A stretch of 64,000 nt of DNA from an uncultured Bacteroidales bacterium (GCA_942492865.1 OW818650.1:23892-87891); one strand, 5' to 3'. Positions 3,045-30,698 are shown, counted from the first letter of the stretch. Made by a program: numbers and translations. The notes: generated by a model not told the origin, from the letters alone.

Positions 3045-3120
3045 AATTAACTCCGTTTCTGCAAATATATAAAAAAACAGTATGTTTTCCCGGTTAAATA
3101 GGGGCAGCATCCATTAAGGC

Positions 3121-3514
3121 TAACGGCCCGGCGGTATAATTAGTAAACGTTGCGGAGTCGACTGGAGGCCGCACCCGAGATGTTTTCGCTTGGAATTCGG
3201 ATGTTTCAAAGGCCGTATAGGAGCGTAGCACGGCGCGTGTTTTTGCTGTCAGGCAGTATTTTGATTGAGGGTACTGTGTAGTCGCGGTACAAAGCCGGAT
3301 GCGCGCCAGTTGTTATCCCCGGTTACAAAGTGATCTTGATGCAGTGGTGCAGTGTCGCGGTACAAGGCCAAACCCGCGCCGGTTGTTATCCACGGTTACT
3401 GACTTTTCTTTCGGGTAGAGGCGGGAGTCCGGGTTTATCAGCAACTACTTGTTTATCAAGGTGCAGGACCCCGCAAAAACCGTGACGAGTTTATTAATTA
3501 TACCGTCCGTGTTA
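3121..3514 (+). repeat. Cassette-boundary element E4, type B (394 bp)
   Basis: Same termini and interior as E2. Confidence 0.9.
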
Positions 3515-3525
3515 GCTTTAGGTAT

Positions 3526-4465: not shown

Positions 4466-4540
4466 AGAGATGGATAATATGTTATAGATTCACAAAATAA
4501 AAGGGATAGATCTTTATATCGAGCAGGATGTACTTAAAGC

Positions 4541-4868
4541 TAACGGCCCGGCGGTATAATTTAGTAAACGTTGCTGAGCTACGGAAGGCCGGACAGAACA
4601 ACCTCTCTCCTATCCTACAATCTCTGTGAGGCCGTAAGGAGCGAAGCACGGCGCGGTTTTTGCCGCCGTACTCTGCATTAAATTTGAGGTAGTGAGCTGA
4701 TGCGGTACAATTATGATTGACGTGCCAGTTTTTTTCCCCAGTTACTGAAAGCAGGTTATGAGCACTGGAGGGAACAAAGTGGCTTTAATCGCAGTATCGG
4801 TATTTTCTTTTGGTGCAGTAGGATAAGCAAAAACCGTGACGAGTTTATTAATTATACCGTCCGTGTTA
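4541..4868 (+). repeat. Cassette-boundary element E5, type C (328 bp)
   Basis: Near-identical to E3. Confidence 0.9.
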
Positions 4869-5011
4869 GTGTGCCGTGCCATTTTGAAACTTGGAGCTTA
4901 TACAATGTTGTTTAAAAAACGTGAATTATTGTTTAGGCAGAAATAAAAGTCCCGGTTTAAGGCAGAAAATAATTATCGTTGTATTGGCCTTTGCATCAAG
5001 CGCATGGCCAC

Positions 5012-5283
5012 TAACGGCTCGGTGGTTGCGGTAGTAAGCGTTGGTGGCGCCGTCCGCCGTTGCGTGTCCCGGTACTTTAGGTCGGATTAGTCCCGGCGGG
5101 CAAGCCACCATGGCGCAATTTTTGCCAGTCCCGGCGAACGATAAAGTTGTCACGATAAACGGATTTGTCCAGAGCCGGAAGAAACGGAATTGGTAGATAA
5201 GTGAAAAGTTATTCGTCACGAAAAAATTGTCAAGGTAGTGAGCAAAAATTGTGACAAGCTTATTACCTCAACCATCCGGGTTA
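5012..5283 (+). repeat. Cassette-boundary element E6, type D (272 bp)
   Basis: TAACGGCTCGGTGGTTGCGGTAGTAAGC ... GCTTATTACCTCAACCATCCGGGTTA. Same architecture: terminal helix plus an inner CAATTTTTGC/GCAAAAATTG helix. Interior differs, with TTGTCAC-type motifs. Confidence 0.75.
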
Positions 5284-5512
5284 TGGTTAGTTCTAAAATT
5301 AAAACTGTCAAGATATTACGAATTTGTCATGGTAAAGAAATTTGTCTTGGTTCCAAATCCCGGTGAAAGAGCAGGAGTGGTCCAGTTTTACGAATTTGTC
5401 ACAAGTATGAATCCCTGTGGCAATGGTCCCGGTCCCGGATATACGGCGGGAATTGTCAAATATTGGATTTTACCCATAATGTCATAGATAACAAATGGAT
5501 GTTTTTTGGTCA

Positions 5513-6301: not shown

Positions 6302-6934
6302 TTAAAATTTATAAATTGCTCCAATTGTGATTGCATTCAAAGAAACAATGTTGCTTAGTCCAGCCCCAAAGTTAAAATTTGATCTTTTATCTGTAAAATC
6401 ATCTTCTTTGGATGTGCTATGACTATAACCAACACTTAATATATTGAGTGATGTTTCTATAGATAATTTCTCTGAAATATCATATGCCAATCCCGGGAAA
6501 ATACTTAAATACGTACTTGTTGTTTTAGGACCATCATTTATGGTTCCTCCTCTTTTAACACTTGATTTTGAGAATTCTAATCCAATATTTCCCTGACCAT
6601 AGATTGAGAACTTATTCCATTTAACTGCGTAATATCGCAAAAAAGGACTTACCCCGATACCGGAAGATTTGGATATGGTTTCATTATTACCATCTGTTTT
6701 GTTATAAGAAAGAGAATAATCTAATGCCAACCCTATAGCCAGCTTTTCAGATAGAAATTTGCCGACATTTGGCCTAAGGTTAAGATTATAACCAAACGAT
6801 TTTTGAGCAGGCATTCCCTGGAGATTATTGTTAGAGGTATTAAAACCAGCATTTCCTCCCACAAATACCTGAGCACTAGTATTGATGAAAACAAAAGAGC
6901 AAATAGCGATCAAAAAAACTTTACAGGATTTCAT
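6302..6934 (-). CDS. Outer-membrane beta-barrel (porin-family-like) protein
   Basis: 210-aa ORF with a signal peptide (FINTSAQ), beta-strand periodicity and a C-terminal ...GAIYKF typical of OMP barrels. Confidence 0.6.
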   Translation of the reverse strand: MKSCKVFLIAICSFVFINTSAQVFVGGNAGFNTSNNNLQGMPAQKSFGYNLNLRPNVGKFLSEKLAIGLALDYSLSYNKTDGNNETISKSSGIGVSPFLRYYAVKWNKFSIYGQGNIGLEFSKSSVKRGGTINDGPKTTSTYLSIFPGLAYDISEKLSIETSLNILSVGYSHSTSKEDDFTDKRSNFNFGAGLSNIVSLNAITIGAIYKF

Positions 6935-7127
6935 AAATATTATTTTTTGAATTATGCCTACTCTTTGGTTTTTCGGCCTCCACCAGTTGGTAATAAATAA
7001 GTTTTAGTGTTAATTACTTCACAGCAAAAATCAAACCAATCTTTTTTCTTAGGAATACCATAAAATCGACCTAAAGAACGTGCAGGAATAAGCTAGATAT
7101 AAGATATTTGTAATAGTTAACATCCCG

Positions 7128-7386: not shown

Positions 7387-7781
7387 ATAACGGCCCGGCA
7401 ATAAAATTAGTAAACGTTACCCGACGCACCGACGGCCGGTGAGCACTACAGCCTACTATGAAGAAAATGTATCGAGGCCGGAGAAGGAGGGTACGGCGCG
7501 TGTTTTTGCTGTCCATGTAGAGAATTTAATTGAGTATTACGAGTGTCGCGGTACAAGATGTGATGCGCGCCATATGTTGTCCCCGGTTACAGAGGTGATC
7601 TAGGTGCACTGGTGCAGTGTCGCGGTACAATGCCAAATCGGCGCCAGTTGTTGTCCCCGGTTACTGACGTTTCTACGGGCAGGGCGGGAATCCGGGTTTA
7701 CCACCATACCAGTTGTTGTCCAACGTGCAGAGAATCAATGCAAAAACCGTGACGAGTTTATTAATTTTATTGTCCGTGTTA
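7387..7781 (+). repeat. Cassette-boundary element E7, type A (395 bp)
   Basis: Same termini and interior as E1. Confidence 0.9.
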
Positions 7782-7792
7782 GCAACAGGCTT

Positions 7793-8833
7793 TTATTTTC
7801 TCTTCTTTTTATTTTTAATTCTATTGGATTCGATTTGAACTTTTGTTATACTATGCATCTCCACAGAAACACATTCAATTTTTTCTTGCTCAAATAATAC
7901 TATATTCTTACCTCCTTTATGAAGAGAACTATTAAAGATTATCCCTTCTGCTCCAGTTATATATCTGATGAATTCACAGATAAATTGGGTTGGTATATAC
8001 TCCAATTCTGAATCATATCTTCGTATTGGTTTTGAAAGGTCCAAACTTATCTTCTTCTTTAATAGCATACTTTTAGTGTATTCCACCAAATTTCCGATAT
8101 TTAAAAATGAGCTTATGTCTTCGGTAAAGTCAACTATAATAATTTTTTCTCCATGTTTAATTTTAAAAATCCCAATACTAATATCGTCAAGATATGTGGC
8201 TCGAGTTTCATATAGAGTTGTATCAACAGACTTACTTAAATATAAATATGGTATTCCAAGAGGATTAGCTCTACCGCTCTTTGTTTCATAATTTTTAGGA
8301 CACCCCATATTGGTTTTGGTGAAAGGTGATTTTTCTCCTTTAAAATGGATCCTGGCTCGATATAATTCCTGCCTTGGAGAAAGTTCAATAGTTCTATTAA
8401 AAAAACTATCCCATCTTAACTCGATTAGTCTATCAATATCGTTTAGGTACCGAAATTTCCATTTTAAATTCTCTTTTAGAATGTCCCAATATGAAACACA
8501 TTCAAAAATTTCATCAATGTAGGATACCGAATCTGAAGAACTCGTTATTGGCTTATCAACCCTTGATAATATCTCTTCGAGTATGTTTTTGCAATTTGTC
8601 TCTGACGAGAAAAGATTCCAATCATCTTGGATTACTTTGCATATTGGTTGGCCAGAAAGATCCTTTTTGAAAATGTTAATTAACTCTGAGAAAAAATCTA
8701 ATAATTCAGTAATATCTAAAACACTAGTTTCAATACTTTTAGAACAAAAATCACAGTGGTCTTTTACTTTTGAATTTATTATAATGAATTGCTTAATTTC
8801 AACATCGTTGAAGCAATTAGCACAGATGTTCAT
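7793..8833 (-). CDS. RES-domain protein with N-terminal CxxC...CxxC zinc ribbon (putative NAD-targeting toxin/effector)
   Basis: 346 aa. N-terminus MNICANCF...HCDFCSK. Candidate RES signature residues: SGRANPLGIPYLYLS (R), TLYETRA (E), IIFNSSLHKGGKNIVLF (S). Confidence 0.7.
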   Translation of the reverse strand: MNICANCFNDVEIKQFIIINSKVKDHCDFCSKSIETSVLDITELLDFFSELINIFKKDLSGQPICKVIQDDWNLFSSETNCKNILEEILSRVDKPITSSSDSVSYIDEIFECVSYWDILKENLKWKFRYLNDIDRLIELRWDSFFNRTIELSPRQELYRARIHFKGEKSPFTKTNMGCPKNYETKSGRANPLGIPYLYLSKSVDTTLYETRATYLDDISIGIFKIKHGEKIIIVDFTEDISSFLNIGNLVEYTKSMLLKKKISLDLSKPIRRYDSELEYIPTQFICEFIRYITGAEGIIFNSSLHKGGKNIVLFEQEKIECVSVEMHSITKVQIESNRIKNKKKRK

Positions 8834-8844
8834 AATCCTAAGAG

Positions 8845-9789
8845 TTATAAAATGCTATTCACTAATTCCAGATGATTCTTAATGGATATTTTTTTGACCA
8901 TTCCTAGACCGGGATATGTTCCTTTACCATTATTGTAGTAGCATCGTAACTCTTCAGATGCATTAGTATGAATATTTTCAGAATCAAGAAACCTTACCGC
9001 CTTTTTTGCCGCCTCGGCAAACTTTCCTTGAATATTTTCCCTACCTAAGTTAGTTTCTGATACAAAATGTCTTACCCAAATAATATCATCGTCCTTTTGA
9101 TATGTAATATGTATGGCAACAGCATATGGAAGTGCGCCACCTTCTTTAAATTCGTTTTCAAGAACGGTATAATCTGAAAAACCATAATATCCATCCTCTG
9201 TGTAGAACAAATGCTCTTCTGTAAATTTTTCTTCGGAAATATTGAGATAATCTTTATTTTGCTTTTGTGCATTAAAACTATCATCTATTCTAATTAATTT
9301 TTTCTCAGTCTTATGTAAAAATCTTCTAAGTGTTCGATTCTCCTTAGACACTATATATTTTACTTGATCACATAATATTAAACTCTGAAAGTTCGGATCA
9401 CTTGTATTTGTACTTTCTGAACAAACTATCATTACAGAATTATAGTTTTGATTTGATATATGTTTCTCCAGTTCTTTATAGCCAGTTGTAACTATAAATG
9501 CAGGTATCCATCTTTTATCATCAATAAGAACATTTTTTAATTCTCTAAGAATCATTTTCTCTTTTTCTAGATCGGATAAACTCTTAATCTCTCCAACTTT
9601 GGGGTTGAGAATTAGAACTGGAGTTATATTTGAATCAAGGATTTTTGTTAATGCAAGCTTTAAACTATTAAAAGTTTCTTTAACAGGTTCTATAATTGGA
9701 ATAATATGATTATCGGATCCGAATTGCTCTGCATATTCTCGTAAAGCGATTAATTCAAATTGTCTACCTCTTAAATAGGGAAAGTACAT
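8845..9789 (-). CDS. sce7725-family-like protein
   Basis: 314 aa starting MYFPYLRGRQFELIALRE. From memory this matches the characteristic N-terminus of the sce7725 family, which is normally paired with sce7726. Needs HMM confirmation. Confidence 0.55.
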   Translation of the reverse strand: MYFPYLRGRQFELIALREYAEQFGSDNHIIPIIEPVKETFNSLKLALTKILDSNITPVLILNPKVGEIKSLSDLEKEKMILRELKNVLIDDKRWIPAFIVTTGYKELEKHISNQNYNSVMIVCSESTNTSDPNFQSLILCDQVKYIVSKENRTLRRFLHKTEKKLIRIDDSFNAQKQNKDYLNISEEKFTEEHLFYTEDGYYGFSDYTVLENEFKEGGALPYAVAIHITYQKDDDIIWVRHFVSETNLGRENIQGKFAEAAKKAVRFLDSENIHTNASEELRCYYNNGKGTYPGLGMVKKISIKNHLELVNSIL

Positions 9790-9806
9790 TATATTATGTT
9801 TTACAA

Positions 9807-10685
9807 TTAAATTTTTACAGAAATACTAAGTTTGGAATATAACTCATTAAAGGTTTTAGAGTCCAGGTTTAGTGCCAAGCACATTTGTCTTAATTCTTTG
9901 GTGAATGAATCAATAATTTTAGTATTTGATTTTCTCTTTTTTATTTCTGCAATAAAAAGTTGGTTTAATATGTCATTTGGGATTTCTCTAATCAGCTTTT
10001 TGCATTCTTCAAACATTTTAAAGCTATTCACATTAGGGAGTTCTCCGTAATAGCGGAGAATTATGTTTTTATATTCAGATGTTCTGACAGAACAAATTAG
10101 AGTATCAGGATCAATGATATGATTTTCAAAAGCAGGTCTGATTTCTCTCATTGCTAATGATTTATGGTTATCAGTGAGTTCGATAATACCTACTTTCTCA
10201 TTCTCTCTTAGGTAAATATTGATCAATGATCTATGTGTTATTACATAACATTCCTTAAATATTTTTGTATAATCTGATAATTGATTATATAAACGTTTTT
10301 TTGAATCTAATTCTGTTTTAATTTCAAACGCTTTACTAGTTCCATTGAATAAAACTAAATCAGCGATAGAATTATTGACTCTAAATTCGTTAATGATGAT
10401 TGACTCTTTTTTCCCATACTTTTCAATTAATAAATCATTAATGAACGTATTTTTATAAATATATTCATTTTGATAATGCTTTTTCAGTTCTCGGTATGTG
10501 TATTGAATGTAATCGAAATATGTGTGAATACTTTTACCGATTTTAGGCAAATCATAAATCTGAATATTGGAATTTATTAAAGAGTAATCATTATTTTTTA
10601 ATATTCTAGTGAAGGCCATCCGGGAGAAAATAGCTGAATAGCTCCTATATTTGTTAAGTGATATTTGATTCTGTATAAAACTCAT
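9807..10685 (-). CDS. sce7726-family-like protein with PD-(D/E)xK nuclease-like motif
   Basis: 292 aa. NEFRVNNSIADLVLFNG...KAFEIKTELD fits a D...ExK restriction-endonuclease-fold core. Adjacent to the sce7725-like gene. Confidence 0.55.
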   Translation of the reverse strand: MSFIQNQISLNKYRSYSAIFSRMAFTRILKNNDYSLINSNIQIYDLPKIGKSIHTYFDYIQYTYRELKKHYQNEYIYKNTFINDLLIEKYGKKESIIINEFRVNNSIADLVLFNGTSKAFEIKTELDSKKRLYNQLSDYTKIFKECYVITHRSLINIYLRENEKVGIIELTDNHKSLAMREIRPAFENHIIDPDTLICSVRTSEYKNIILRYYGELPNVNSFKMFEECKKLIREIPNDILNQLFIAEIKKRKSNTKIIDSFTKELRQMCLALNLDSKTFNELYSKLSISVKI

Positions 10686-10796
10686 TTATAAAATGTTATG
10701 TCTTATATTGGCTGTTAATAACACAAATGTAAACAATATAATTAGTATAAATGTAAGGGTCATTAGATATTTGCATCGTCGGTGAGTGCTTGTTGC

Positions 10797-11189
10797 TAAC
10801 GGCCCGGCAATAAAATTAGTAAACGTTACCCGACGCCACGACGGCCGGACAAGACAATGCCTACTAAGAAGAAAATGATTTGAGGCCGGAGAAGAAGGGT
10901 ACGGCGCGTGTTTTTGCTGTCCAGGCAGAGAATTTAATTGAGTATTACGAGTGTCGCGGTACAAAATGTGATGCGCGCCATATGTTGTCCCCGGTTACAG
11001 AGTGATCTAGGTGCACTGGTGCAGTGTCGCGGTACAAAGTTGATGCGCGCCAGTTGTTGTCCCCGGTTACTGAGGTTTCTTTCGGGCAGAGGCGGGAATC
11101 CGGGTTTATCACCATGCCATATGTTGTCCAACGAGCAGAGAATCAGAGCAAAAACCGTGACGAGTTTATTAATTTTATTGTCCGTGTTA
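10797..11189 (+). repeat. Cassette-boundary element E8, type A (393 bp)
   Basis: Same termini and interior as E1. Confidence 0.9.
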
Positions 11190-11218
11190 GGTGGTCGTAG
11201 TATTGTACTTTTTATTAT

Positions 11219-12715: not shown

Positions 12716-12777
12716 TGAATGCTTTTTTATGTTTGAATTGTCCAGAATTTGTCTTTGGGGGCACTTACTATGCCACC

Positions 12778-13169
12778 TAACGGCCCGGCAATAAAATTAG
12801 TAAACGTTACCCGACGCCCGGAGGCCGGTGAGCACTGCACCCTACTATGAAGAAAATGTATCGAGGCCGGAGAAGGAGGGTACGGCGCGTGTTTTTGCAG
12901 TCCAGGCAGAGAATTTAATTGAGTATTACGAGTGTCGCGGTACAAAATGTGATGCGCGCCATATGTTGTCCCCGGTTACAGAGTGATCTAGGTGCATAGG
13001 TGCAGTGTCGCGGTACAAGGCTGATGCGCGCCGGTTGTTGTCCACGGTTACTGATGTTTCTACGGGCAGAGGCGGGAATCCGGGTTTATCACCACGCCAG
13101 TTGTTGTCCAACGAGCAGAGAATCAATGCAAAAACCGTGACGAGTTTATTAATTTTATTGTCCGTGTTA
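12778..13169 (+). repeat. Cassette-boundary element E9, type A (392 bp)
   Basis: Same termini and interior as E1. Used as the exemplar for the fold analysis. Confidence 0.9.
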
Positions 13170-13208
13170 GGTGTTCGTGGTATTGTATTTGATTATATAT
13201 AAGCATTA

Positions 13209-13685
13209 TTAAAATCTATAAGAAATAGTTAATCCTGTACATAAAGGACCATTATTGTTAATGAAAACTGGTCTAAAACTAATTGAGTTATTATATTTAT
13301 TGTGCTCAATCATTACCTTTTTTATATTATGAGATCGGCTAATACCTATATTACACGCGATAACTCCGCCTCCAATTAGGCCGTAGCCAAGGATTTTATA
13401 AATACCTTTCATCACGCGGCTGCCCAGAATTTCTTCACCAAAAGTAGCATCCTCAGGCAATCCATTTTTATAGGTAGTATTGGCAACCAGGATTGATAAA
13501 CATCCTAAACCTATACTACAACCACCAGCAATGGTGACTTTCTTATAATCTTGGAAAGATATGGTGAGCTGTTCATTCGTGAGATCTCTGATATCATTGA
13601 CACCATATTGTTTTGTGTACCACTGACTTTTTAACGAGCAATTCAGTAATAATAAAATTAGTTGAGCACATAAAAGGCGTTTCAT
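13209..13685 (-). CDS. Hypothetical secreted/membrane protein (cassette cargo)
   Basis: 158-aa ORF with a signal peptide and Gly-rich hydrophobic segments. Confidence 0.5.
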   Translation of the reverse strand: MKRLLCAQLILLLLNCSLKSQWYTKQYGVNDIRDLTNEQLTISFQDYKKVTIAGGCSIGLGCLSILVANTTYKNGLPEDATFGEEILGSRVMKGIYKILGYGLIGGGVIACNIGISRSHNIKKVMIEHNKYNNSISFRPVFINNNGPLCTGLTISYRF

Positions 13686-13840
13686 CTTTTAAGTATTAGA
13701 AAGGAGTAAAAGTAAATTGTTGAATCTTTCGAGAATGCGAAGTTTGAAGGCTGCTCAGTATGTTTGTAAGAAGGTATGTCCAATACTTGTCATAAGTTTC
13801 TAAACGAACAAAAATATTTTAAAATCCAAATGATTATCGC

Positions 13841-15727
13841 ATCGAGTAGGTAAAGGGGAGTTTCACCCCTAAACCTCTCACGGAACCGTACGTGATACTC
13901 TCGCATCATACGGCTCTTGTTATACAAAAAAAGTCAAGCGGTTTCGAAGCCATGCTGCCAGTGTACAAATAAATCGGGTTGCCGTTTAGCAAGATCCCGA
14001 ATCCATCGACCAGCTTTCTTATGACTACCATTAAACCGTTTATACCGTTTAACCACCCACATGTTCAACCTGCGATGAAAGACACTGAATATCCACTGTA
14101 ACTCGTGTTTCCTGTATTTCCCAAAGTGATCAATCCAGCTCTTAATCTTCGGGTTGAAGAAAGCAGCTATGTGGTATATATCCCTGTTGGTCCAATTGTG
14201 AAAATTTGAGTCACGTATCTCGTCAATGATCCTCTTCTCGTTCTTCTTGCTAATCGCACAATCAAATCCTAAGAACATTCTGCCCTCTTCTTTATTCATT
14301 GCCGGTCTTGGCTGAAAGCTGAATCCCAGAAAATCAAACTGCACTGTATTATAGTCGGCATTGCGCCGTGCTTTCTTACAGTATACAATTTTCGTCTTCT
14401 TTTCATTCAGTTGCAGCTTGCATTCGACCATTCTCTCCCTTATGGCTTTTAGAACTTCCTCTGCTTCCTGCTGCGTATTACAGTGAACAATTATGTCATC
14501 TGCATAGCGTACAAATCGAAGCTTCGGGTATGTCTTTCCAAGCCATTTGTCAAAAGCATAATGAAGGAATAGGTTCGCAAGCAGAGGACTAATTACTCCT
14601 CCCTGCGGTGTGCCCTCTCCCATCCTGTATCTCTTGCCACCTTTTCTATCTTCTATCGCGGCTTCAAGCCACCTCACGAGATACATCTTTACCCATTTCT
14701 CCTCAACATGCCTTTCAACTGCCTTCATGAGCAGCTCGTGTGACATCTTGTCGAAGAAACTTGATATGTCCATGTCGACAACCCACTCGAACTCCCGCAC
14801 ATTTCTACGAACCTGTGCGATTGCCTGATGAGTACTTCTAAGTGGTCGATATCCGTAAGAGCTTTCCACAAATATAGCTTCAAAGCGGGCTTCAAGGTAA
14901 TCTTTGATGACCTGCTGCGCTATCCGGTCTCTTACTATGGGTATTCCAAGCTTACGCTTTCTCCCATCATCCTTAGGAATTTCTACTTCGAGAACTGAAG
15001 TTGGTCGGTAGCTGCCTGAACTCAGGCGGTTCCAGATCACATAGAGATTGTTAGATAATTTCTCTTCAAACTTCTCCAGAGTCTCCCCATCTATCCCGGC
15101 TGCTCCCTTGTTCTTCTTTACTCTCTTGTAGGCGGCGACTACCATTTCCTGGGTAATCGGTATGCTTTTCGTCTCCGTTGTCCTACTCCTACCCCGGTTA
15201 TCCAAGGGTGGTAGAGGCAATTTCAACTGTATAACCTCAGCCCTTCGCTCCGCTCCCATTACAGGAGTTTCATCACTACTACGACTGAGTCTGTCCTCAT
15301 ACAAGTCATCAGTATTCGGCCTCCCGGGTTGTCCTCCTGGTTGTGCCTTTCCTTTACCATCCTTGTATGAGTTCCCCTGTTCCATAACTAAGCCTGAATA
15401 GAAATCATGCCCCCTTTATGCCGTCTGCCATGCAGCCAGTAAGCAGGTGCCCGCTGCACTTTGGTCCCCCAGCAGCCATAAACCGGTGGTTTTGACAGAT
15501 TGTCGTTCTCTCGACACTTCATCGAAGGTTCATTTTCATTCATCTTTCCTATTCTTACCTGATCCTTTTGGCAGGACCTTTTCCCCTTACCGTTTAGTAC
15601 CTCGCCGTTGCCAGTTCAGCACCGAGGGGCGGTTTCCGGGTACGCCTGTACGTCCCCGTGAGAGGCCATACTCTCATCTTAATTACAGCATCAGATCCCG
15701 TTGGTACGAGGTCTGTTCAGGGCACAC
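13841..15727 (-). mobile_element. Group II intron, copy 1 (intact, 1887 bp)
   Basis: On the minus strand the 5' end reads GTGTGCCCTGAAC (GUGYG). A 34-nt domain V, GAGCCGTATGATGCGAGAGTATCACGTACGGTTC, is the reverse complement of 13883-13916 and shows the AGC triad, a 2-nt bulge and a GAGA tetraloop. A domain VI-like hairpin follows and the intron ends ...CTACTCGAT. Encodes an RT/maturase. Confidence 0.9.
13934..15385 (-). CDS. Group II intron reverse transcriptase/maturase (no endonuclease domain evident)
   Basis: 483 aa with RT motifs (AAGIDG, RKLGIPIVRDRIAQ, FVRYADDIIVHC) and a C-terminal maturase-like region. Confidence 0.9.
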   Translation of the reverse strand: MEQGNSYKDGKGKAQPGGQPGRPNTDDLYEDRLSRSSDETPVMGAERRAEVIQLKLPLPPLDNRGRSRTTETKSIPITQEMVVAAYKRVKKNKGAAGIDGETLEKFEEKLSNNLYVIWNRLSSGSYRPTSVLEVEIPKDDGRKRKLGIPIVRDRIAQQVIKDYLEARFEAIFVESSYGYRPLRSTHQAIAQVRRNVREFEWVVDMDISSFFDKMSHELLMKAVERHVEEKWVKMYLVRWLEAAIEDRKGGKRYRMGEGTPQGGVISPLLANLFLHYAFDKWLGKTYPKLRFVRYADDIIVHCNTQQEAEEVLKAIRERMVECKLQLNEKKTKIVYCKKARRNADYNTVQFDFLGFSFQPRPAMNKEEGRMFLGFDCAISKKNEKRIIDEIRDSNFHNWTNRDIYHIAAFFNPKIKSWIDHFGKYRKHELQWIFSVFHRRLNMWVVKRYKRFNGSHKKAGRWIRDLAKRQPDLFVHWQHGFETA

Positions 15728-17613
15728 ATCGAGTAGGTAAAGGGGAGTTTCACCCCTAAACCTCTCACGGAACCGTACGTGATACTCTCGCATCATACGG
15801 CTCTTGTTATACAAAAAAAGTCAAGCGGTTTCGAAGCCATGCTGCCAGTGTACAAATAAATCGGGTTGCCGTTTAGCAAGATCCCGAATCCATCGACCAG
15901 CTTTCTTATGACTACCATTAAACCGTTTATACCGTTTAACCACCCACATGTTCAACCTGCGATGAAAGACACTGAATATCCACTGTAACTCGTGTTTCCT
16001 GTATTTCCCAAAGTGATCAATCCAGCTCTTAATCTTCGGGTTGAAGAAAGCAGCTATGTGGTATATATCCCTGTTGGTCCAATTGTGAAAATTTGAGTCA
16101 CGTATCTCGTCAATGATCCTCTTCTCGTTCTTCTTGCTAATCGCACAATCAAATCCTAAGAACATTCTGCCCTCTTCTTTATTCATTGCCGGTCTTGGCT
16201 GAAAGCTGAATCCCAGAAAATCAAACTGCACTGTATTATAGTCGGCATTGCGCCGTGCTTTCTTACAGTATACAATTTTCGTCTTCTTTTCATTCAGTTG
16301 CAGCTTGCATTCGACCATTCTCTCCCTTATGGCTTTTAGAACTTCCTCTGCTTCCTGCTGCGTATTACAGTGAACAATTATGTCATCTGCATAGCGTACA
16401 AATCGAAGCTTCGGGTATGTCTTTCCAAGCCATTTGTCAAAAGCATAATGAAGGAATAGGTTCGCAAGCAGAGGACTAATTACTCCTCCTGCGGTGTGCC
16501 CTCTCCCATCCTGTATCTCTTGCCACCTTTTCTATCTTCTATCGCGGCTTCAAGCCACCTCACGAGATACATCTTTACCCATTTCTCCTCAACATGCCTT
16601 TCAACTGCCTTCATGAGCAGCTCGTGTGACATCTTGTCGAAGAAACTTGATATGTCCATGTCGACAACCCACTCGAACTCCCGCACATTTCTACGAACCT
16701 GTGCGATTGCCTGATGAGTACTTCTAAGTGGTCGATATCCGTAAGAGCTTTCCACAAATATAGCTTCAAAGCGGGCTTCAAGGTAATCTTTGATGACCTG
16801 CTGCGCTATCCGGTCTCTTACTATGGGTATTCCAAGCTTACGCTTTCTCCCATCATCCTTAGGAATTTCTACTTCGAGAACTGAAGTTGGTCGGTAGCTG
16901 CCTGAACTCAGGCGGTTCCAGATCACATAGAGATTGTTAGATAATTTCTCTTCAAACTTCTCCAGAGTCTCCCCATCTATCCCGGCTGCTCCCTTGTTCT
17001 TCTTTACTCTCTTGTAGGCGGCGACTACCATTTCCTGGGTAATCGGTATGCTTTTCGTCTCCGTTGTCCTACTCCTACCCCGGTTATCCAAGGGTGGTAG
17101 AGGCAATTTCAACTGTATAACCTCAGCCCTTCGCTCCGCTCCCATTACAGGAGTTTCATCACTACTACGACTGAGTCTGTCCTCATACAAGTCATCAGTA
17201 TTCGGCCTCCCGGGTTGTCCTCCTGGTTGTGCCTTTCCTTTACCATCCTTGTATGAGTTCCCCTGTTCCATAACTAAGCCTGAATAGAAATCATGCCCCC
17301 TTTATGCCGTCTGCCATGCAGCCAGTAAGCAGGTGCCCGCTGCACTTTGGTCCCCCAGCAGCCATAAACCGGTGGTTTTGACAGATTGTCGTTCTCTCGA
17401 CACTTCATCGAAGGTTCATTTTCATTCATCTTTCCTATTCTTACCTGATCCTTTTGGCAGGACCTTTTCCCCTTACCGTTTAGTACCTCGCCGTTGCCAG
17501 TTCAGCACCGAGGGGCGGTTTCCGGGTACGCCTGTACGTCCCCGTGAGAGGCCATACTCTCATCTTAATTACAGCATCAGATCCCGTTGGTACGAGGTCT
17601 GTTCAGGGCACAC
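15728..17613 (-). mobile_element. Group II intron, copy 2 (1886 bp, head-to-tail with copy 1)
   Basis: By eye identical to copy 1 except for one missing C in the run at about 16488-16490. Its 5' end lies 8 nt from the TAAC of E10. Confidence 0.85.
15821..17271 (-). pseudogene. Frameshifted group II intron RT/maturase
   Basis: A 1-nt deletion (ctccctgc becomes ctcctgc) splits the ORF into 16480-17271 and 15821-16318, which otherwise translate identically to copy 1. Confidence 0.85.
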
Positions 17614-17621
17614 ATGACACC

Positions 17622-18013
17622 TAACGGCCCGGCAATAAAATTAGTAAACGTTACCCGACGCCCGGAGGCCGGGGAGCACTACACACTACTATGAAGAGAA
17701 TGTATCGAGGCCGGAGAAGGAGGGTACGGCGCGTGTTTTTGCAGTCCAGGCAGAGAATTTAATTGAGTATTAAGAGTGTCGCGGTACAAGATGTGATGCG
17801 CGCCATATGTTGTCCCCGGTTACAGTGTAATCTAGGTGCACTGGTGCAGTGTCGCGGTACAAAGTTGATGCGCGCAGGTTGTTGTCCACGGTTACTGTGG
17901 TTTCTAAGGGCAGAGGCGGGAATCCGGGTTTATCACCAAGCCAGTTGTTGTCCAACGTGCAGAGAATCAATGCAAAAACCGTGACGAGTTTATTAATTTT
18001 ATTGTCCGTGTTA
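17622..18013 (+). repeat. Cassette-boundary element E10, type A (392 bp)
   Basis: Same termini and interior as E1. Confidence 0.9.
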
Positions 18014-18087
18014 GCATTTCGGGGCCAATTTTAAATCATGTCCTTGGCAAATAAATATTTCTGTGTTTGAGTCTGATTTTGCAACCT

Positions 18088-18813
18088 TTAATTAAATATT
18101 CGGTGCTTACCTAACATGTCATTAATATTCTCTATATGCTGAGTTTGTATTGCTTTACTATTGCCATTATACATAGCTTCTTTCAATACTTTAACTACTT
18201 CATATTTGTCAGTATAAGGAGCTAATTCCTTTTTGCTTAAGATGATATCCAAAGCTTCTAAAACTCTTGCTGATTTGACAATAAATGTACCATCTGGAAC
18301 GAAATTGATATCTTTCAATACACAATCTCCATAGAACACTACTATTGAATAGAAAGCGATATTTTCAAATTGCCTAAGTTTTTTTCTTATTTCAGCTATA
18401 TGCCTATTGTTTTGCATGATTGGATTATAAAAACGATATTTTTCCTTTCCATAAGCCAATACTTGGGTCCATTCTCTATATTTCCCATTTCCAAAGATCC
18501 ACCCACTGTAGTCTTTTACTTCAAATACAATTATCCCTGTTTTTGCAGCTACTACTAAATCAATCTGTGAAAATTCACCATCAGACTTTTCTATATACAG
18601 GTCATGAAAAATCGCCTGTGCTGGTATTCCATGTTTTAAAAATTTTAATACTAAATCTTTTTCCGTTCTCGTGCCTCTATTTGATTTAGTGACAGTTTCT
18701 AATAGTTTTTTGTCGCGTATCTTTCTAAAAATAGCATAGAAACACAGACAGATGAATATGATAAGAGGAATCCATTTTATATAAGGCAAATATGATTTAA
18801 AGTCTCCTTCCAT
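18088..18813 (-). CDS. NERD (nuclease-related domain) protein with N-terminal TM helix
   Basis: 241 aa. TEKDLVLKFL...HDLYIEKSDGEFSQIDLVVAAKTGIIVFEVKDYSGWIFG fits the NERD pattern. Confidence 0.7.
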   Translation of the reverse strand: MEGDFKSYLPYIKWIPLIIFICLCFYAIFRKIRDKKLLETVTKSNRGTRTEKDLVLKFLKHGIPAQAIFHDLYIEKSDGEFSQIDLVVAAKTGIIVFEVKDYSGWIFGNGKYREWTQVLAYGKEKYRFYNPIMQNNRHIAEIRKKLRQFENIAFYSIVVFYGDCVLKDINFVPDGTFIVKSARVLEALDIILSKKELAPYTDKYEVVKVLKEAMYNGNSKAIQTQHIENINDMLGKHRIFN

Positions 18814-19475: not shown

Positions 19476-20056
19476 AATTTTCTTTTTACTATTGAAATGA
19501 AGTTTTGCACAGCGGCATAGATGCTAACTTGTTTTTAATTGTGCATTAGCCAAAGTCATAACAGAACTATCTTGTGTAGTCGCAAAAGCCAATGCCAGGT
19601 TACCAATTATATTTGGTTTTTGATGCATTTCGGGGCCATTTTAAAAACGATCACTTGATCCTTTCAAGGTCTTGTCGCAGTGAGGGAATATAGGCGATCA
19701 CTAGTTACCCCTGAGTGTAGTTATGAAAATCAAATATATAAATTTTAAGTCCCATATCCCCTATCAGTATCTTGTCGTGAGTTGGGATATCCTGATAGAA
19801 AGCAGTATTGTTATTAAAATAACAGAAGTTTTCTAAAGACGGCGCGAGGGCAAACTATCGAGCGATGGCAAATCCCGATACAAGAGATGAAGTTGTCATA
19901 TTACACAAAATTTTCATAAAACGGAGCGACGGCAAATCCTTGTTATCAAGCGATATATGGATTTTCTGTTAGCATTTCGGGGCCTCAATTATTGACACGC
20001 GTTTTTCACCATAGATAATTTGTCAATGTATCTGGGCGCACCAGGGCCCTGAATGC

Positions 20057-20455
20057 TAACGGCCCGGCAATAAAAGTCGTTTGCAGTGCGTAGTCGACCG
20101 GAGGCCGCCAGCAGAATTTCAAGGGTTTGTTAAAGCATAAATCTACTAAAGGCCGTAGGGAGCGAAGCATGGCGCAATTTTTGCCATCACGGCACAATTT
20201 TGCTTGGTGCTGGCGCGATCGCGGTACAAGTTTTCGGGCGACTGAGATTGAGTCATGGTTCTAAGTATGGTCGAAGACGTTTGCGCAGTTTCGCGGTACA
20301 ATACTTGGTCGGAGCCACAATCTGTCACGGTACAGAAGTTTAGTAGAGGGCAGATGAGCGTATCACGGCATAAGAGTTTGGGCAGAAACTAATCTTGTAA
20401 GCAGGAATAAAACGCAAAAATTGTGACAAGCAAATGACTTTTATTGTCCGTGTTA
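20057..20455 (+). repeat. Cassette-boundary element E11, type E (399 bp)
   Basis: TAACGGCCCGGCAATAAAAGTCGTTTGC ... GCAAATGACTTTTATTGTCCGTGTTA. The terminal helix is re-coded with compensatory changes. The inner CAATTTTTGC/GCAAAAATTG helix and TCGCGGTACAA motifs are retained. Confidence 0.85.
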
Positions 20456-20470
20456 TAAACCGTTGTTTTT

Positions 20471-24828: not shown

Positions 24829-26388
24829 TCATTCATGTACTCCAGTCTTTTCCAGGTGCAAATAATCAACTACCTGCTCTTTCACGTCAAGATCCTCAAT
24901 AGGACTTCTGATTGCCACCAGATTCCTGCGGCTGACGTGAGTATATATCTCTGTTGTGCGGGTGCTTTTGTGACCAAGTAGCTCCTGAATATATCTTATA
25001 TCAAGTCCATTCTCATGCAGATGCGTTGCGTAACTGTGCCTCAGGCTGTGAACGCCCACTTCCTTCTGTATGCCGGCATCTCTTAATGCTTTCTTGAAAA
25101 CATGATAAACGCTTTCAACGGAATACCGCTGACCCCTCTGGCCTTCAAAAAGATATTTTCCCGGACGATGGCTTTCAAGATACTCATCAACCTTCGGCCA
25201 GAGTTTACCTGGCACCGGAACAATCCGGTCAACTCCCCCCTTCCCTTCCCGAATGTGAAGAATATTACGCTCCCTGTCAAAATCGGTGAGCCTGATATTT
25301 GTAACCTCCGATCTCCTCAGCCCACAGGAATAAATAATCCAAAGGAGCAACTTGTGCTTGCTGTTACGCGCAGAGTTAAGTATTCTGGCTATCTCATCTT
25401 TGGAAAAGACCTTCGGCAATGCTCTGCTGCGCCTGGGCCTCTCAAGTATCCCGGGTATAATTCTCCCTTTTCCGGCGAGCTCATAATAAAGCTTGATCGC
25501 CGAAACCATCTGGTTTTGAAATGATGCGGAAAAGCCGTGCTTCAAAACAAAGTCATTAATGAAGTCCGACACTTCATTATGGGATATTTCATGCGGATCT
25601 TTTGTATGATAGTACTTAAAAAATAATTCAAGCTGGGAAATGTATGACTCAATTGTCCTGTTACTATACCTGTATTCTTCGAGATGCCTCCGTAAAAGTT
25701 CAACTCCTTCCCTTGCAGCTGTTTTAAGTTCCCTTGACCTTACTTCTTCACCTGAGGCCTTCCGGGCCTCTGCAACATCTGCTTTTGGTGCCTGCTTTAA
25801 TACAATGACCTTCACCCCCTGGCCAGAGAAGTAATCGGACAATGAATCAACGGTAATCTTCGACCACTTAAGAAGAAACTCCCTGTGAACCTTGTCATAA
25901 TAATACTTACCGTAACTTCTGATCTCATCAATCCATTTCTTATCATAGTAACCGGTGAACCTTACAGACAACCGCTCATCTTCAATGCGGAATTCAACCG
26001 GTGAATATCCTGATGTGAATGACCTTTCATGGAAATCTTTTTTTCCTTCAACTAAGTCATCATCACGGATTTTCTCTTTAACTATTTTTATTTCAGTTCT
26101 GGGGATGAGCGCTTCTTCCTCATGATGATCAGGAACATGATCAGGTATTTTGAGCCCGCCATAGTAGGCTGTATTCGATAGATCGATATCTGCTACCTCC
26201 CTGAAAGCCATCAGAACCTTCCTGAGGTTTTCTTTGTTATCCTCAATATGCCAGCATTTTAGCGAACCGCTGTAATTAACTCCATTAAGTTGTTTTGTAA
26301 TTGAAATAAGTTCCCTGTCATACACGAATTCAAGAGACAATCTTCGCCTTTCATCATGTATGATGTGCCTTACAGTGATCTTTTTCAT
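24829..26388 (-). CDS. Tyrosine recombinase/integrase with a long N-terminal extension
   Basis: C-terminal catalytic motifs: GLRRSE (R), HSLRHSYATH (HxxR), LLGHKS, IYTHV (Y). Preceded by about 250 aa, including two similar modules (RRRLSLEFVYD... and ERLSVRFTGYYD...). Start taken at MKKITVRH (26388). The ORF track extends to 26496. Confidence 0.85.
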   Translation of the reverse strand: MKKITVRHIIHDERRRLSLEFVYDRELISITKQLNGVNYSGSLKCWHIEDNKENLRKVLMAFREVADIDLSNTAYYGGLKIPDHVPDHHEEEALIPRTEIKIVKEKIRDDDLVEGKKDFHERSFTSGYSPVEFRIEDERLSVRFTGYYDKKWIDEIRSYGKYYYDKVHREFLLKWSKITVDSLSDYFSGQGVKVIVLKQAPKADVAEARKASGEEVRSRELKTAAREGVELLRRHLEEYRYSNRTIESYISQLELFFKYYHTKDPHEISHNEVSDFINDFVLKHGFSASFQNQMVSAIKLYYELAGKGRIIPGILERPRRSRALPKVFSKDEIARILNSARNSKHKLLLWIIYSCGLRRSEVTNIRLTDFDRERNILHIREGKGGVDRIVPVPGKLWPKVDEYLESHRPGKYLFEGQRGQRYSVESVYHVFKKALRDAGIQKEVGVHSLRHSYATHLHENGLDIRYIQELLGHKSTRTTEIYTHVSRRNLVAIRSPIEDLDVKEQVVDYLHLEKTGVHE

Positions 26389-26652
26389 AAGCAGCGAGAG
26401 TAAGAATTTAGCACTTTGAACTACTCCAATACATGAGATAAACACGGATTGAAAAAGCAGTCTGCATAGCAAGTTACAAAGAATTAGAAAAACCACAAAA
26501 AGTTTTCAATTGCTGTCACTCATTTAACTAAATCATTTCAATAAGTTGTCCAACATATCCAAAAAGTACTATAGATATATCAATTTGCATTATCGGAATT
26601 GTTGACTATTTTTGTGAAAGTTTTGCCGTCTTGCTGAAAGAGGTAAAAAATC

Positions 26653-26726
26653 CGGGGTGTGGCGCAGTTGGCTAGCGCACTTGCATGGGGTGCAAGGGGT
26701 CGTCCGTTCAAGTCGGATCACCCCGA
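26653..26726 (+). tRNA. tRNA-Pro (anticodon GGG)
   Basis: Hand-folded cloverleaf. Acceptor CGGGGTG/CACCCCG with C1:G72, D stem GCGC/GCGC, anticodon stem CTTGC/GCAAG, loop ATGGGGT (U33, GGG, G37), T arm GTCCG-TTCAAGT-CGGAT, discriminator A. Confidence 0.85.
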
Positions 26727-26740
26727 CAAAAGGTATAATG

Positions 26741-30313: not shown

Positions 30314-30659
30314 ATTTATGATTTTTGATCAGTATAGTTTATACAAAAATGGATTTCAATAGGGGAAATGTCGATTTCAGTAAGAATTTATTAAGATATC
30401 TTCTAAAGAGTTATATTTTTATTCTAACTATAATTTGATTATCAGATCTTTATAAATATATAAAATTTACGATTTTCGATATTATTAACAATAATTGAAA
30501 GGTTACGCTTTACTTTAAGTGTGATAAAAGTTACAATAAAATGATCAACGGTTGTTACACAAATTAGATTATTTTGACAAATCCCTGACTTTTTTGGATG
30601 AAATGCATATTTTAAATTGTTAAGTCTTGATGAAGTTATCTGGTCACTTGCTGCTGGTT

Positions 30660-30698
30660 CAAGGGGTCGTCCGTTCAAGTCGGATCACCCCGACAAAA
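30660..30698 (+). other. 39-bp direct repeat of the tRNA-Pro 3' half (att-like; decayed tRNA remnant)
   Basis: CAAGGGGTCGTCCGTTCAAGTCGGATCACCCCGACAAAA is identical to 26693-26731. Upstream, cacttgc also matches, but there is no acceptor 5' strand. A hairpin plus T-run follows. Confidence 0.8.

Follow-up and report, generated by a model that had tools for sequence, protein, structure and literature searches.

Satellite phage P4 carries a three-gene system, gop-β-cII, which is named Rst_gop_beta_cll in DefenseFinder and for which PADLOC v2 has the models gop, beta and cll. The toxicity of gop in the absence of β was reportedly described in 1990. The system was validated as a defense in 2022; it guards E. 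coli from infection by λ and P1, and gop becomes toxic once β is missing (PMC9122126). The phage protein orf184 triggers the toxicity of gop-β-cII (bioRxiv 10.1101/2023.04.06.535777). No mechanism of gop-β-cII was found in the literature searched. A Beta-family protein is also the third component of PD-λ-2 (Vassallo et al. 2022), a three-gene TA-like defense system; P4 Beta matches PD-Lambda-2_C, and PD-λ-2C is required for defense, not for antitoxicity (bioRxiv 10.1101/2022.05.12.491691).

Other known systems act on NAD+. The defense protein aRES degrades NAD+ to nicotinamide and ADP-ribose-1''-phosphate (ADPR-1''-P) (Osterman et al., bioRxiv 10.64898/2026.01.28.702374). It is defined there as standalone and non-operonic, and its criteria are HEPN/RES-NTD1 (PF18870) and RES in one protein of 300–600 aa. 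RES domains acting on NAD+ are also the toxins of the two-gene Xre-RES type II TA systems (MbcTA, ParST, and the RES-Xre of Skjerning et al. 2019). Defense modules are further known as cassettes of integrons (bioRxiv 10.1101/2024.07.02.601719).

The window, that is, the whole 64-kb stretch of DNA analyzed, contains a 3,013-bp integron-type cassette at 7783–10795, whose content by ORF listing is three genes only. The G+C of the cassette is 29%, vs. 40% for the window. Its features are:

7387..7782, plus strand: attC-like repeat element E7, terminating in GTCCGTGTTAG; the cassette boundary follows 7782
7783..10795, minus strand: the cassette, bounded by CAACA...TGTTG, extending to GTTAG/CTAAC
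7793..8833, minus strand: gene 3, last of the operon; CxxC...CxxC zinc ribbon, probable HEPN/RES-NTD1 (residues ~1–130) and RES domain (157–322)
8845..9789, minus strand: gene 2; sce7725 protein with a TIM-barrel-like predicted fold, probable distant homologue of P4 Beta
9807..10685, minus strand: gene 1, first of the operon; sce7726 / Phage_P4_cII protein, predicted PD-(D/E)xK nuclease fold
10686..10795, minus strand: leader of 110 nt, from the cassette boundary to the start codon of gene 1
10796..11190, plus strand: attC-like repeat element E8, beginning with CTAACGGCCCGGC

The three ORFs are co-directional on the minus strand, in the order 10685–9807 (292 aa), 9789–8845 (314 aa) and 8833–7793 (346 aa). 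The intergenic gaps of 17 nt (9790–9806) and 11 nt (8834–8844) are exactly those given in the earlier note, which had read the genes as an sce7726-like, sce7725-like and RES-domain module. All motifs quoted there were found: gene 1 contains IADLVLF...FEIKTE, gene 2 contains MYFPYLRGRQFELIALRE, and gene 3 has CxxC...CxxC at its N terminus. The family calls of the note agree with the HMM searches, in which sce7726, sce7725 and RES were all matched and HEPN/RES-NTD1 was detected in 26 of 40 family members. The note was aware of no characterization of the exact trio; the literature mentions sce7725 and sce7726 only in incidental gene lists, and experiments on any member of the trio were not found in it.

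The sequence GTTAGCAACA occurs at two sites only in the window, 7778–7787 (+) and 10791–10800 (−). The chance expectation is about 0.09 matches, and two or more were obtained in 0 of 100 shuffles, so that the matched flanks previously placed round a single cassette between E7 and E8 are borne out. Both sites mark the outer end of a ~395 bp repeat, in its copies at 7387–7782 and 10796–11190; this repeat is present in at least 10 copies between 226 and 20456 (repeat families D2–D7). In eight of nine inter-element segments, the 4–5 nt after the left GTTAG are the reverse complement of the 4–5 nt before the right CTAAC; the ninth segment holds an additional divergent element. This complementarity follows the same rule as integron cassettes (R''/R' ends), and the flanks of the present cassette are GTTAG-CAACA on the left and TGTTG-CTAAC on the right. 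The ends of the attC-like elements pair with compensatory changes in an alignment of 10 elements. It is this alignment that indicates the pairing, not the folding of a single element, which taken alone showed no significant gain over shuffles (z = −1.5).

The locus resembles the integron defense cassettes in having a defense-type module as one cassette, attC-like sites and R'/R''-type flanks. It differs from them in three respects. The attC-like elements are 330–400 bp, much longer than classical attC. The nearby tyrosine recombinase, at 24829–26496, scores below the integron-integrase cut-off (200 bits on TIGR02249, cut-off 265), with 220.5 bits on the XerA/integron-integrase model (cut-off 220). 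The host is Bacteroidota-like, as judged from the closest homologues. An assignment of the recombinase to a tRNA-Pro island was rejected, the tRNA 3'-end repeat being on the opposite side of the tRNA. Within the leader, TACATTTG at 10731–10724 fits TAnnTTTG, the −7 promoter consensus of Bacteroidota, and it is possible that the leader carries a candidate cassette-internal promoter. A sigma-70 promoter scan was uninformative in this AT-rich region (24 sites vs. 19 expected).

Gene 1 matches the NCBIfam sce7726 model (NF033832) with 161.9 bits (cut-off 70; E 1.6e-47), in keeping with the family first suggested for it. It is window protein P0121, with a precomputed match to Pfam PF26915 Phage_P4_cII; it also matches the PADLOC cll model (E 6.7e-20) and P4 cII itself (BLASTP, E 2e-12). 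P4 cII scores 151 bits on the sce7726 model (E 2.5e-44), and its RefSeq annotation agrees. By profile match, P4 cII is itself an sce7726 protein, a link absent from the earlier note. The columns E...D...ExK...D...R...Q are common to gene 1 and P4 cII, and E100, D109, E121 and K123 do not vary in any of 41 sequences, P4 cII among them. The AF2 model of gene 1, with a domain pLDDT of 58–70, gave weak but consistent Foldseek matches to 3dnx, Cas4 (4ic1), SfsA, XPF and McrC. The invariant residues and the weak nuclease fold matches both agree with the PD-(D/E)xK-like core proposed before, and gene 1 is predicted to encode a PD-(D/E)xK nuclease-fold protein.

Gene 2 belongs to the sce7725 family, as its MYFPYLRGRQFELIALRE motif had suggested, by a full-length match to NF033831 (293.3 bits, cut-off 60; E 2.9e-87; residues 2–314 on model positions 1–312). 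The family comprises 1,416 clusters at 50% identity. The AF2 model is TIM-barrel-like (pLDDT 85, pTM 0.87), and its Foldseek matches in the PDB are aldolases and glycosidases with TM ~0.4. Many acidic, His and Lys residues are invariant in sce7725 proteins, so that the protein looks enzyme-like and would fit poorly with a simple binding antitoxin. The conserved residues of the barrel include E34, D206, H227 and H241.

The relation of gene 2 to P4 Beta lies below family thresholds. No similarity to P4 Beta was found by BLASTP, and no match to the PADLOC beta model at E up to 1. Pfam PF14350 Beta_protein matches only the N-terminal 50 residues of gene 2, with 16.3 bits, below the gathering score of 27; sub-threshold matches to this model were seen in 18 of 30 sce7725 relatives. 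Profile comparison by hhalign gave 54% probability with shallow profiles and 76% in another run, and with 136 diverse sequences the probability was 89% in local and 93.5% in global mode. The alignment is collinear over the full length (E 2.5e-6 to 3.4e-8). Beta-family genes at other loci adjoin an sce7726-family gene. These profile alignments make a remote homology of gene 2 to P4 Beta probable.

Gene 3 matches Pfam PF08808 RES with 53 bits (threshold 23.2; E 5.2e-14), and its match to HEPN_RES_NTD1 (PF18870; E 0.023, 15.5 bits) is below the threshold of 27.4. Among 40 family members, RES is present in all and NTD1 in 26, the best E being 4.3e-7. The zinc ribbon and RES domain claimed for this protein are therefore both seen, the former as CxxC...CxxC and the latter in each of the 40 relatives. 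The residues C4, C7, C27, C30, R188, N190, Y198, E209, S302 and S303 are invariant in the family. The columns of R188, E209, S302 and S303 align with those of a standalone E. coli RES protein, to which the RES domain of gene 3 is 28% identical (BLASTP). By its domain content, gene 3 appears to be a protein of the aRES architecture, a second link that had not been made before, and by analogy it is predicted to be the NAD+-cleaving effector. When the profiles of the three families were run on PDB sequences, no meaningful match emerged. A search of viral structures in BFVD returned an uncharacterized protein of Gordonia phage Powerball (TM 0.63/0.55, E 1e-8).

Orthologs of the three genes are strongly linked, as expected if they form one module. 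RES follows the sce7726/sce7725 pair in 78 of 80 other species, and all three genes occur in the same order and strand in 73, in line with the statement that sce7725 is usually paired with sce7726. Four more loci lack gene 1 solely through a contig cut. The other three comprise one with RES cut by the contig end, one with a RES remnant (L074) and one without RES (L021); in addition, RES is frameshifted in one of the 73 species with the full trio (L054). The median gaps across the species loci are 3 and 5 nt, the latter before RES, and the identities of the three proteins co-vary across loci (r = 0.77–0.93).

The trio occurs in Bacteroidota, Proteobacteria and other phyla. At ~30% identity it is found on plasmids of Rhizobium, Shinella and Moraxella and on a Salmonella ICE, and it was also reported on an IME of P. 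aeruginosa (PMC9394441). The single cassette with the integron-type flank rule and this recurrence on mobile elements are in keeping with the claim that the genes move as one unit. In IMG/VR, three prophage-like contigs carry the trio, the only matches in 2.9 million viral contigs, a count that weighs against the anti-phage reading. Of 5,426 E. coli genomes, 19 have the trio, and its neighbors in E. coli are a KwaB-like gene, a relaxase and the remnant of a type I R-M system. One of the 19 is strain MS 115-1, with the copy at 4105196–4108064 of NZ_CP146665.1 (WP_000986374, WP_000291755 and WP_000598935). A neighbor scan with PADLOC identified some R-M, MADS and PDC genes, counted without a baseline; the location of the trio in defense islands thereby receives weak support.

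Replacement of the toxin gene was seen in related loci. In a Firmicutes variant GNAT stands in place of RES, and the 295-aa upstream gene of this variant was negative against the cII family (hhalign, 1% probability). P4-type loci have unrelated genes in the gop position.

Like gop-β-cII, the trio consists of three genes on a mobile element, its gene 1 is of the cII family with the same invariant D-ExK motif, and its gene 2 is probably a distant homologue of Beta. The third gene would also be a toxin acting in an abortive-infection logic. The toxins themselves are different: Gop has 133 aa and no domain match, whereas the protein of the trio is an NTD1-RES of 346 aa, and no similarity between gene 3 and Gop was found by BLASTP. 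The gene order also differs, P4 having gop followed by β, with cII running convergently, and the trio having cII-like, Beta-like and RES genes all co-directional. Since gene 1 belongs to the P4 cII family and gene 2 probably to the P4 Beta superfamily, the trio is related to gop-β-cII, and from these profile relations the preferred reading is a variant of that family armed with RES. A PADLOC check found that only the cll model was matched, by gene 1; gop and beta gave no match to the trio at E up to 1. PADLOC v2 would not call the trio as a system.

In comparison with aRES, gene 3 has RES, its length is in the range, and the catalytic positions are conserved; NTD1 is sub-threshold in gene 3 itself and detected in 26 of 40 relatives. 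Unlike aRES, it belongs to a conserved operon, as the last of three genes, in 78 of 80 species, and the trio-linked clade is only 21–28% identical to the more distant standalone NTD1-RES proteins found (tblastn against plasmids). A Beta-like factor for licensing or sensing has a precedent in PD-λ-2C; its partners, however, are a HigB-like protein and an Xre-peptidase instead of cII-like and RES proteins, and the trio proteins gave no match to the PD-λ-2 models of PADLOC. The Xre-RES systems share the toxin domain, and differ in having two genes instead of three and in lacking the N-terminal zinc ribbon and NTD1 added in gene 3. No Xre/MbcA/ParS-type antitoxin was found in the cassette, which has three ORFs only, or as a domain of either partner.

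On balance it seems probable, by a modest measure, that the trio is a TA-like abortive-infection system depleting NAD+. Family membership, intact catalytic motifs and a near-obligate linkage with co-divergence are observed; the role in defense, the action on NAD+ and the division of restraining and triggering tasks among the proteins are inferred. The genes would form one operon whose members are transferred horizontally together, in this case within a single integron-type cassette. The effector would be the product of the last gene, whose RES domain, as in RES toxins and aRES, may cleave NAD+ to nicotinamide and ADP-ribose-1''-phosphate; the resulting depletion of NAD+ would arrest the infected cell. 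The two upstream proteins, homologous to cII and probably to Beta of P4, would be the control module. The Beta-like TIM-barrel sce7725 may keep the toxin silent, license it on a phage cue, or both, and the cII-like PD-(D/E)xK sce7726 may be a nucleic-acid sensor or a second (nuclease) effector. The roles of these two partners are guesses, because the standalone aRES needs no partners.

A broader proposal is more tentative. Phage sensing and toxin licensing may be the task of a portable, general module, made up of the cII-like nuclease and the Beta-like TIM-barrel protein and placed on interchangeable toxins, with the Beta-like protein a true enzyme and not a passive antitoxin. The swapped toxins would be Gop in P4, NTD1-RES in the trio and GNAT in Firmicutes; in PD-λ-2 it would be the HigB-like / Xre-peptidase pair, with the Beta-family protein only.

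TA cassettes stabilize chromosomal integrons, and the trio could likewise be a tripartite TA addiction module, whose main role is the retention of the integron array, plasmid or ICE by post-segregational killing and not phage defense. We regard this as unlikely. It would suit the location of the trio, found as it is in an integron-like array and on plasmids, ICEs and IMEs. Toxins with RES count as classical TA toxins, as cited in bioRxiv 10.64898/2026.01.28.702374, and P4 gop and β act as a TA pair (PMC9122126). However, the closest characterized relatives, gop-β-cII and aRES, were both shown to protect against phage, and three conserved, apparently enzymatic components exceed the needs of addiction. 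The two roles are also compatible with each other.

It is still more doubtful that the trio works by Thoeris-like signaling, with NTD1-RES as a sensor making an ADP-ribose-derived product, sce7725 binding or processing this product, and the PD-(D/E)xK nuclease, switched on by the product, being the real effector. Such a scheme would make use of the intact nuclease motif of sce7726, of a TIM-barrel-like sce7725 whose many invariant acidic, His and Lys residues suit an enzyme or ligand binder, and of ADPR-1''-P as a distinct small molecule. Yet the RES position is taken by unrelated proteins (Gop, GNAT and others) in P4-type and Firmicutes loci, so the Beta/cII pair cannot generally depend on a signal made by RES, and the standalone aRES defends by bulk depletion of NAD+ (bioRxiv 10.64898/2026.01.28.702374).

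Very improbable, and largely refuted by the linkage data, is the chance of two independent neighbors, a standalone aRES-type gene beside a separate sce7726/sce7725 module: more distant NTD1-RES proteins (21–28% identity) do stand alone, and the pair is seen without RES at L021 and with a RES remnant only at L074, but in 78 of 80 species RES comes after the pair, the gap being 5 nt in the median and the divergence correlated, the same arrangement recurs across phyla at ~30% identity, and RES is degraded at two loci, as a short remnant (L074) and by a frameshift (L054).

Read as an NAD+-depleting abortive-infection system, the trio is a widespread candidate anti-phage system overlooked by PADLOC v2. 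Two subjects kept apart until now, gop-β-cII of satellite P4 and the NAD+-phosphorolytic effector aRES, are joined by it. Provided that ADPR-1''-P is the product of the RES effector, as it is of aRES, the system would withstand NARP1 as well, the pathway by which phages reconstitute NAD+. That three genes are packaged in one cassette favors the idea of integron-type arrays as stores of whole defense systems. The native copies in 19 complete E. coli genomes, MS 115-1 included, offer a ready experimental handle. Should the cII-like and Beta-like proteins indeed form a portable module, the RES trio, with its far wider distribution than the version of P4, would be a tractable model for phage sensing of the gop-β-cII type.

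The trio consists of three co-directional genes, taken here from the ORF listing.

Genes of the trio and their cassette
10685-9807, minus strand: gene 1 (sce7726-type), 292 aa
9789-8845, minus strand: gene 2 (sce7725-type), 314 aa
8833-7793, minus strand: gene 3 (RES-domain), 346 aa
7783-10795, minus strand: trio cassette, 3,013 bp, filled by genes 1-3

The spacing of 17 and 11 nt read in the earlier note is borne out, with all three ORFs on the minus strand at 7793-10685. The note had also placed the trio between matched flanks in one cassette, which is confirmed by the cassette end rule described below and by GTTAGCAACA, which occurs only twice in the window, inverted, at 7778 and 10791 (about 0.09 expected by chance). 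Each of these sites forms the outer end of one copy of an approximately 395-bp repeat, which is present at least ten times between 226 and 20456.

Copies of the repeat element in the array
226-620: repeat copy
1443-1842: repeat copy
2224-2554: repeat copy
3120-3515: repeat copy
4540-4869: repeat copy
near 5242-5313: divergent repeat copy
7387-7782: repeat copy E7
10796-11190: repeat copy E8
12777-13170: repeat copy
17621-18014: repeat copy
20056-20456: repeat copy

The element opens with xTAAC-GGCCCGGC and closes with GTCCGT-GTTAG; these termini are complementary, and alignment of the elements reveals two subtypes with compensatory changes in the end-pairing stem. In eight of nine inter-element segments, the 4-5 nt past GTTAG, read in reverse complement, equal the 4-5 nt that precede CTAAC. 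Such a match is the signature of integron cassettes, in which R' and R'' have variable bases that move together with the cassette. The complementary flank bases and the element ends thus indicate that the trio fills a single 3,013-bp cassette. Its G+C content is 29%, versus 40% for the window. TACATTTG at 10731-10724, within the 110-nt leader, is a possible promoter, judged by the Bacteroidota consensus.

The array is integron-like, and its elements of 330-400 bp are unusually long for recombination-site-like sequences; classical attC sites measure roughly 60-140 bp. A duplicated unit, GTCGCGGTACAA...GTTGTCCxCGGTTAC, is found inside the elements, whose paired ends are conserved. Every cassette ORF is encoded on the minus strand, and the nearest homologues of these genes come from Bacteroidota. 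Other features are found in and beside the array.

Other features of the window
24829-26496, minus strand: integron-integrase-related tyrosine recombinase, extended at the N terminus by about 260 aa
13841-15675 and 15728-17561, minus strand: tandem, near-identical group II intron copies (Rfam RF00029, RF01999)
26653-26727: tRNA-Pro(GGG) gene
30645-30698: 54-nt direct repeat of the tRNA gene 3' end

On the XerA/integron-integrase model the recombinase reaches 220.5 bits (cut-off 220), and it falls below the TIGR02249 integron-integrase cut-off (200 vs 265 bits); it is the candidate enzyme for the array, though not a canonical IntI. About 4.4 kb separate it from the last element, with five intervening ORFs without repeats between them. 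Both intron copies, with an RT/maturase ORF at 13934-15385, lie within the cassette 13171-17620 and abut the left end of element E10, a placement reminiscent of group IIC introns targeting attC sites. The cassette ORF 18088-18813 (minus strand, 241 aa) has weak kinase-type matches, well below the cut-offs at E of about 1e-5, to the defence proteins MAD6 and PglW, and its cassette may be a second defence-related one. A Rfam DUF805b RNA motif at 6955-6986 (minus strand), just above the gathering score (37 vs 35.6 bits), precedes the start of a porin-like ORF, 6302-6934, by 21 nt. The tRNA repeat lies 4 kb downstream of its gene, and the only protein between them (27218-30313; 1,031 aa) carries InlB B-repeats and a T9SS sorting domain; the region looks like a small insertion in the tRNA gene.

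Linkage of the three genes, on which the earlier note had made its proposal depend, is strong among orthologues. Scanning a single genome per species gave 80 loci with a sce7725 relative at 41-63% identity, and 73 of them harbor all three genes in the same order and strand, with median intergenic gaps of 3 and 5 nt. Gene 1 is missing in four loci solely through a contig cut. Three have no called RES ORF: it is cut at the contig end in L016, is a remnant in L074 and is absent in L021; in L054, one of the 73, it is frameshifted. The three proteins diverge from their window counterparts in a correlated manner (r = 0.93, 0.79 and 0.77). The hosts are mostly Bacteroidota, but also Cloacimonadota, Ignavibacteriales, Calditrichaceae, Izemoplasmatales and Psychrobacter.

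More distant copies of the trio, about 30% identical, are present on plasmids of Rhizobium, Shinella and Moraxella, on a Salmonella houtenae ICE, on a human-gut phage-like contig, in three IMG/VR prophage-like contigs and in 19 of 5,426 complete E. coli genomes. In E. coli MS 115-1 its neighbours are a relaxase, IS elements, a KwaB-like gene and a type I restriction remnant. A separate gene-neighbour scan gave weak, baseline-free evidence of a defence-island location. The published gene list of a P. aeruginosa integrative mobilisable element also includes the trio (PMC9394441). The window repeat is absent from all other trio loci examined, so the trio moves among many kinds of mobile context.

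Gene 1 belongs firmly to the cII family. It scores 161.9 bits on NCBIfam sce7726 (cut-off 70) and carries a precomputed assignment to Pfam PF26915 Phage_P4_cII; P4 cII itself scores 151 bits on the sce7726 model and is 30% identical to gene 1 over the motif region. In a 41-member alignment including P4 cII, E100, D109, E121, K123, D127, R131 and Q135 are invariant, by sequence a D...ExK nuclease signature. Foldseek matches of the AlphaFold2 model (pLDDT 77.5) are weak but agree on PD-(D/E)xK proteins (3dnx, Cas4, SfsA, XPF and McrC), in line with the core noticed earlier. In the PADLOC check proposed in the earlier note, v2.0.0 matched its 'cll' model to gene 1 (E 6.7e-20) and recognised nothing else, both on the window proteins and on the E. 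coli copies.

Gene 2, assigned to sce7725 in that note, matches the NCBIfam model over its whole length with 293 bits. In a search of 1.84 billion representatives, the family comprised 1,416 clusters at 50% identity for E up to 1e-3, and 571 when E was limited to 1e-30. Its many invariant polar residues are such as an enzyme might have. The predicted model, a confident one (pLDDT 85, pTM 0.87), shows an alternating β/α barrel-like fold, and no close relative was found among solved structures, the nearest being TIM-barrel aldolases and glycosidases at a TM of only about 0.4. On Pfam Beta_protein, gene 2 has a weak N-terminal match below threshold (16.3 bits vs 27), which recurs in 18 of 30 relatives. 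The profile-profile comparison of sce7725 with Beta rose with profile diversity from 54% to 76% and then to 89% (local) or 93.5% (global; E 3.4e-8), the highest with 136 representatives from an exhaustive search. The alignment is collinear and full length, with the corresponding motifs YxPxLRxRxxExxAL, IPxI, YGD/FSDY, WxFxR/WIRHF, IEAA/FAEAA and RINxH/IKNH. A sce7726-family gene adjoins Beta-family genes on other plasmids too, an independent argument that Beta and sce7725 fill the same role.

The zinc ribbon and RES domain described for gene 3 are both upheld: the CxxC...CxxC is invariant and RES is present in 40 of 40 relatives. HEPN/RES N-terminal domain 1 (NTD1) is sub-threshold in the window copy and present in 26 of the 40 (best E 4e-7), and R188, N190, Y198, E209, S302 and S303 are invariant. 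The aRES protein of a 2026 preprint has the same NTD1+RES architecture, and it was reported to be a standalone, non-operonic defence protein converting NAD+ to nicotinamide and ADPR-1''-phosphate (bioRxiv 10.64898/2026.01.28.702374), whereas gene 3 is operonic. Distant NTD1-RES homologues (21-28% identity) from Bacillus, Comamonas, Pantoea, Rhizobium and E. coli are standalone. Therefore the trio-linked RES appears to be a subclade of the aRES-type effector captured into an operon. A standalone 384-aa RES protein is also encoded on the E. coli KE47 chromosome (filed among plasmids; L098 4536-5690), beside an ORF that we read as a KAP-like NTPase and others that look like P2-type portal and terminase genes. 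This RES gene is probably of the aRES type, occupying a P2 prophage hotspot.

In phage P4, gop is followed by beta, with cII convergent. The gop-β-cII system shields E. coli from λ and P1, and gop is toxic without β (PMC9122126); toxicity is triggered by a phage accessory protein (bioRxiv 10.1101/2023.04.06.535777). The trio shares the cII family with it through gene 1, whereas sequence comparison found no relationship between Gop and the RES protein. P4 Beta (L001 651-1718) also matches the PADLOC PD-Lambda-2_C models (E 8e-14), so that the Beta family occurs in two or more multi-gene defence systems with experimental validation. PD-λ-2C is required for defence and dispensable for toxin neutralisation (bioRxiv 10.1101/2022.05.12.491691).

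A Firmicutes variant carries a GNAT acetyltransferase after sce7725, in the RES position.

Firmicutes variant
L084 3108-5513, Enterococcus faecium plasmid p114-2; also L100, a 'Listeria phage' contig

Its order is an unannotated 295-aa ORF, the sce7725 homologue and GNAT, which suggests effector swapping around the sce7725 protein. The gop position in P4-type loci likewise holds various unrelated proteins. Thus the effector position is interchangeable while the partner module persists.

On balance we favour, by a modest degree, a toxin-antitoxin-like abortive-infection system whose RES effector would deplete NAD+. The data show the protein families, their intact motifs, the gene linkage and the mobile settings; defence, the chemistry on NAD+ and how the three proteins share the work are deduced from these. 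A pure addiction module is a less probable reading, and one compatible with defence, the two roles not being mutually exclusive. A signalling design, with the RES product as a ligand for the other two proteins, is improbable, and effector swapping counts against it. Two unrelated systems that are merely neighbours are very hard to credit, being contradicted by the linkage.

The exact set was thought uncharacterised in the earlier note, and we found no description of the trio as a system in the literature searched, where sce7725 and sce7726 appear only in gene lists. Its parts are of familiar kinds, and two of the three components resemble those of a validated system; the trio is therefore not categorically new. 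In the abortive-infection reading, gene 3 would be the NAD+-depleting effector. With far lower confidence for these specific roles, the Beta-like gene 2 protein may restrain or license it, and the cII-like nuclease-fold protein of gene 1 may act as a nucleic-acid sensor or provide a second activity.
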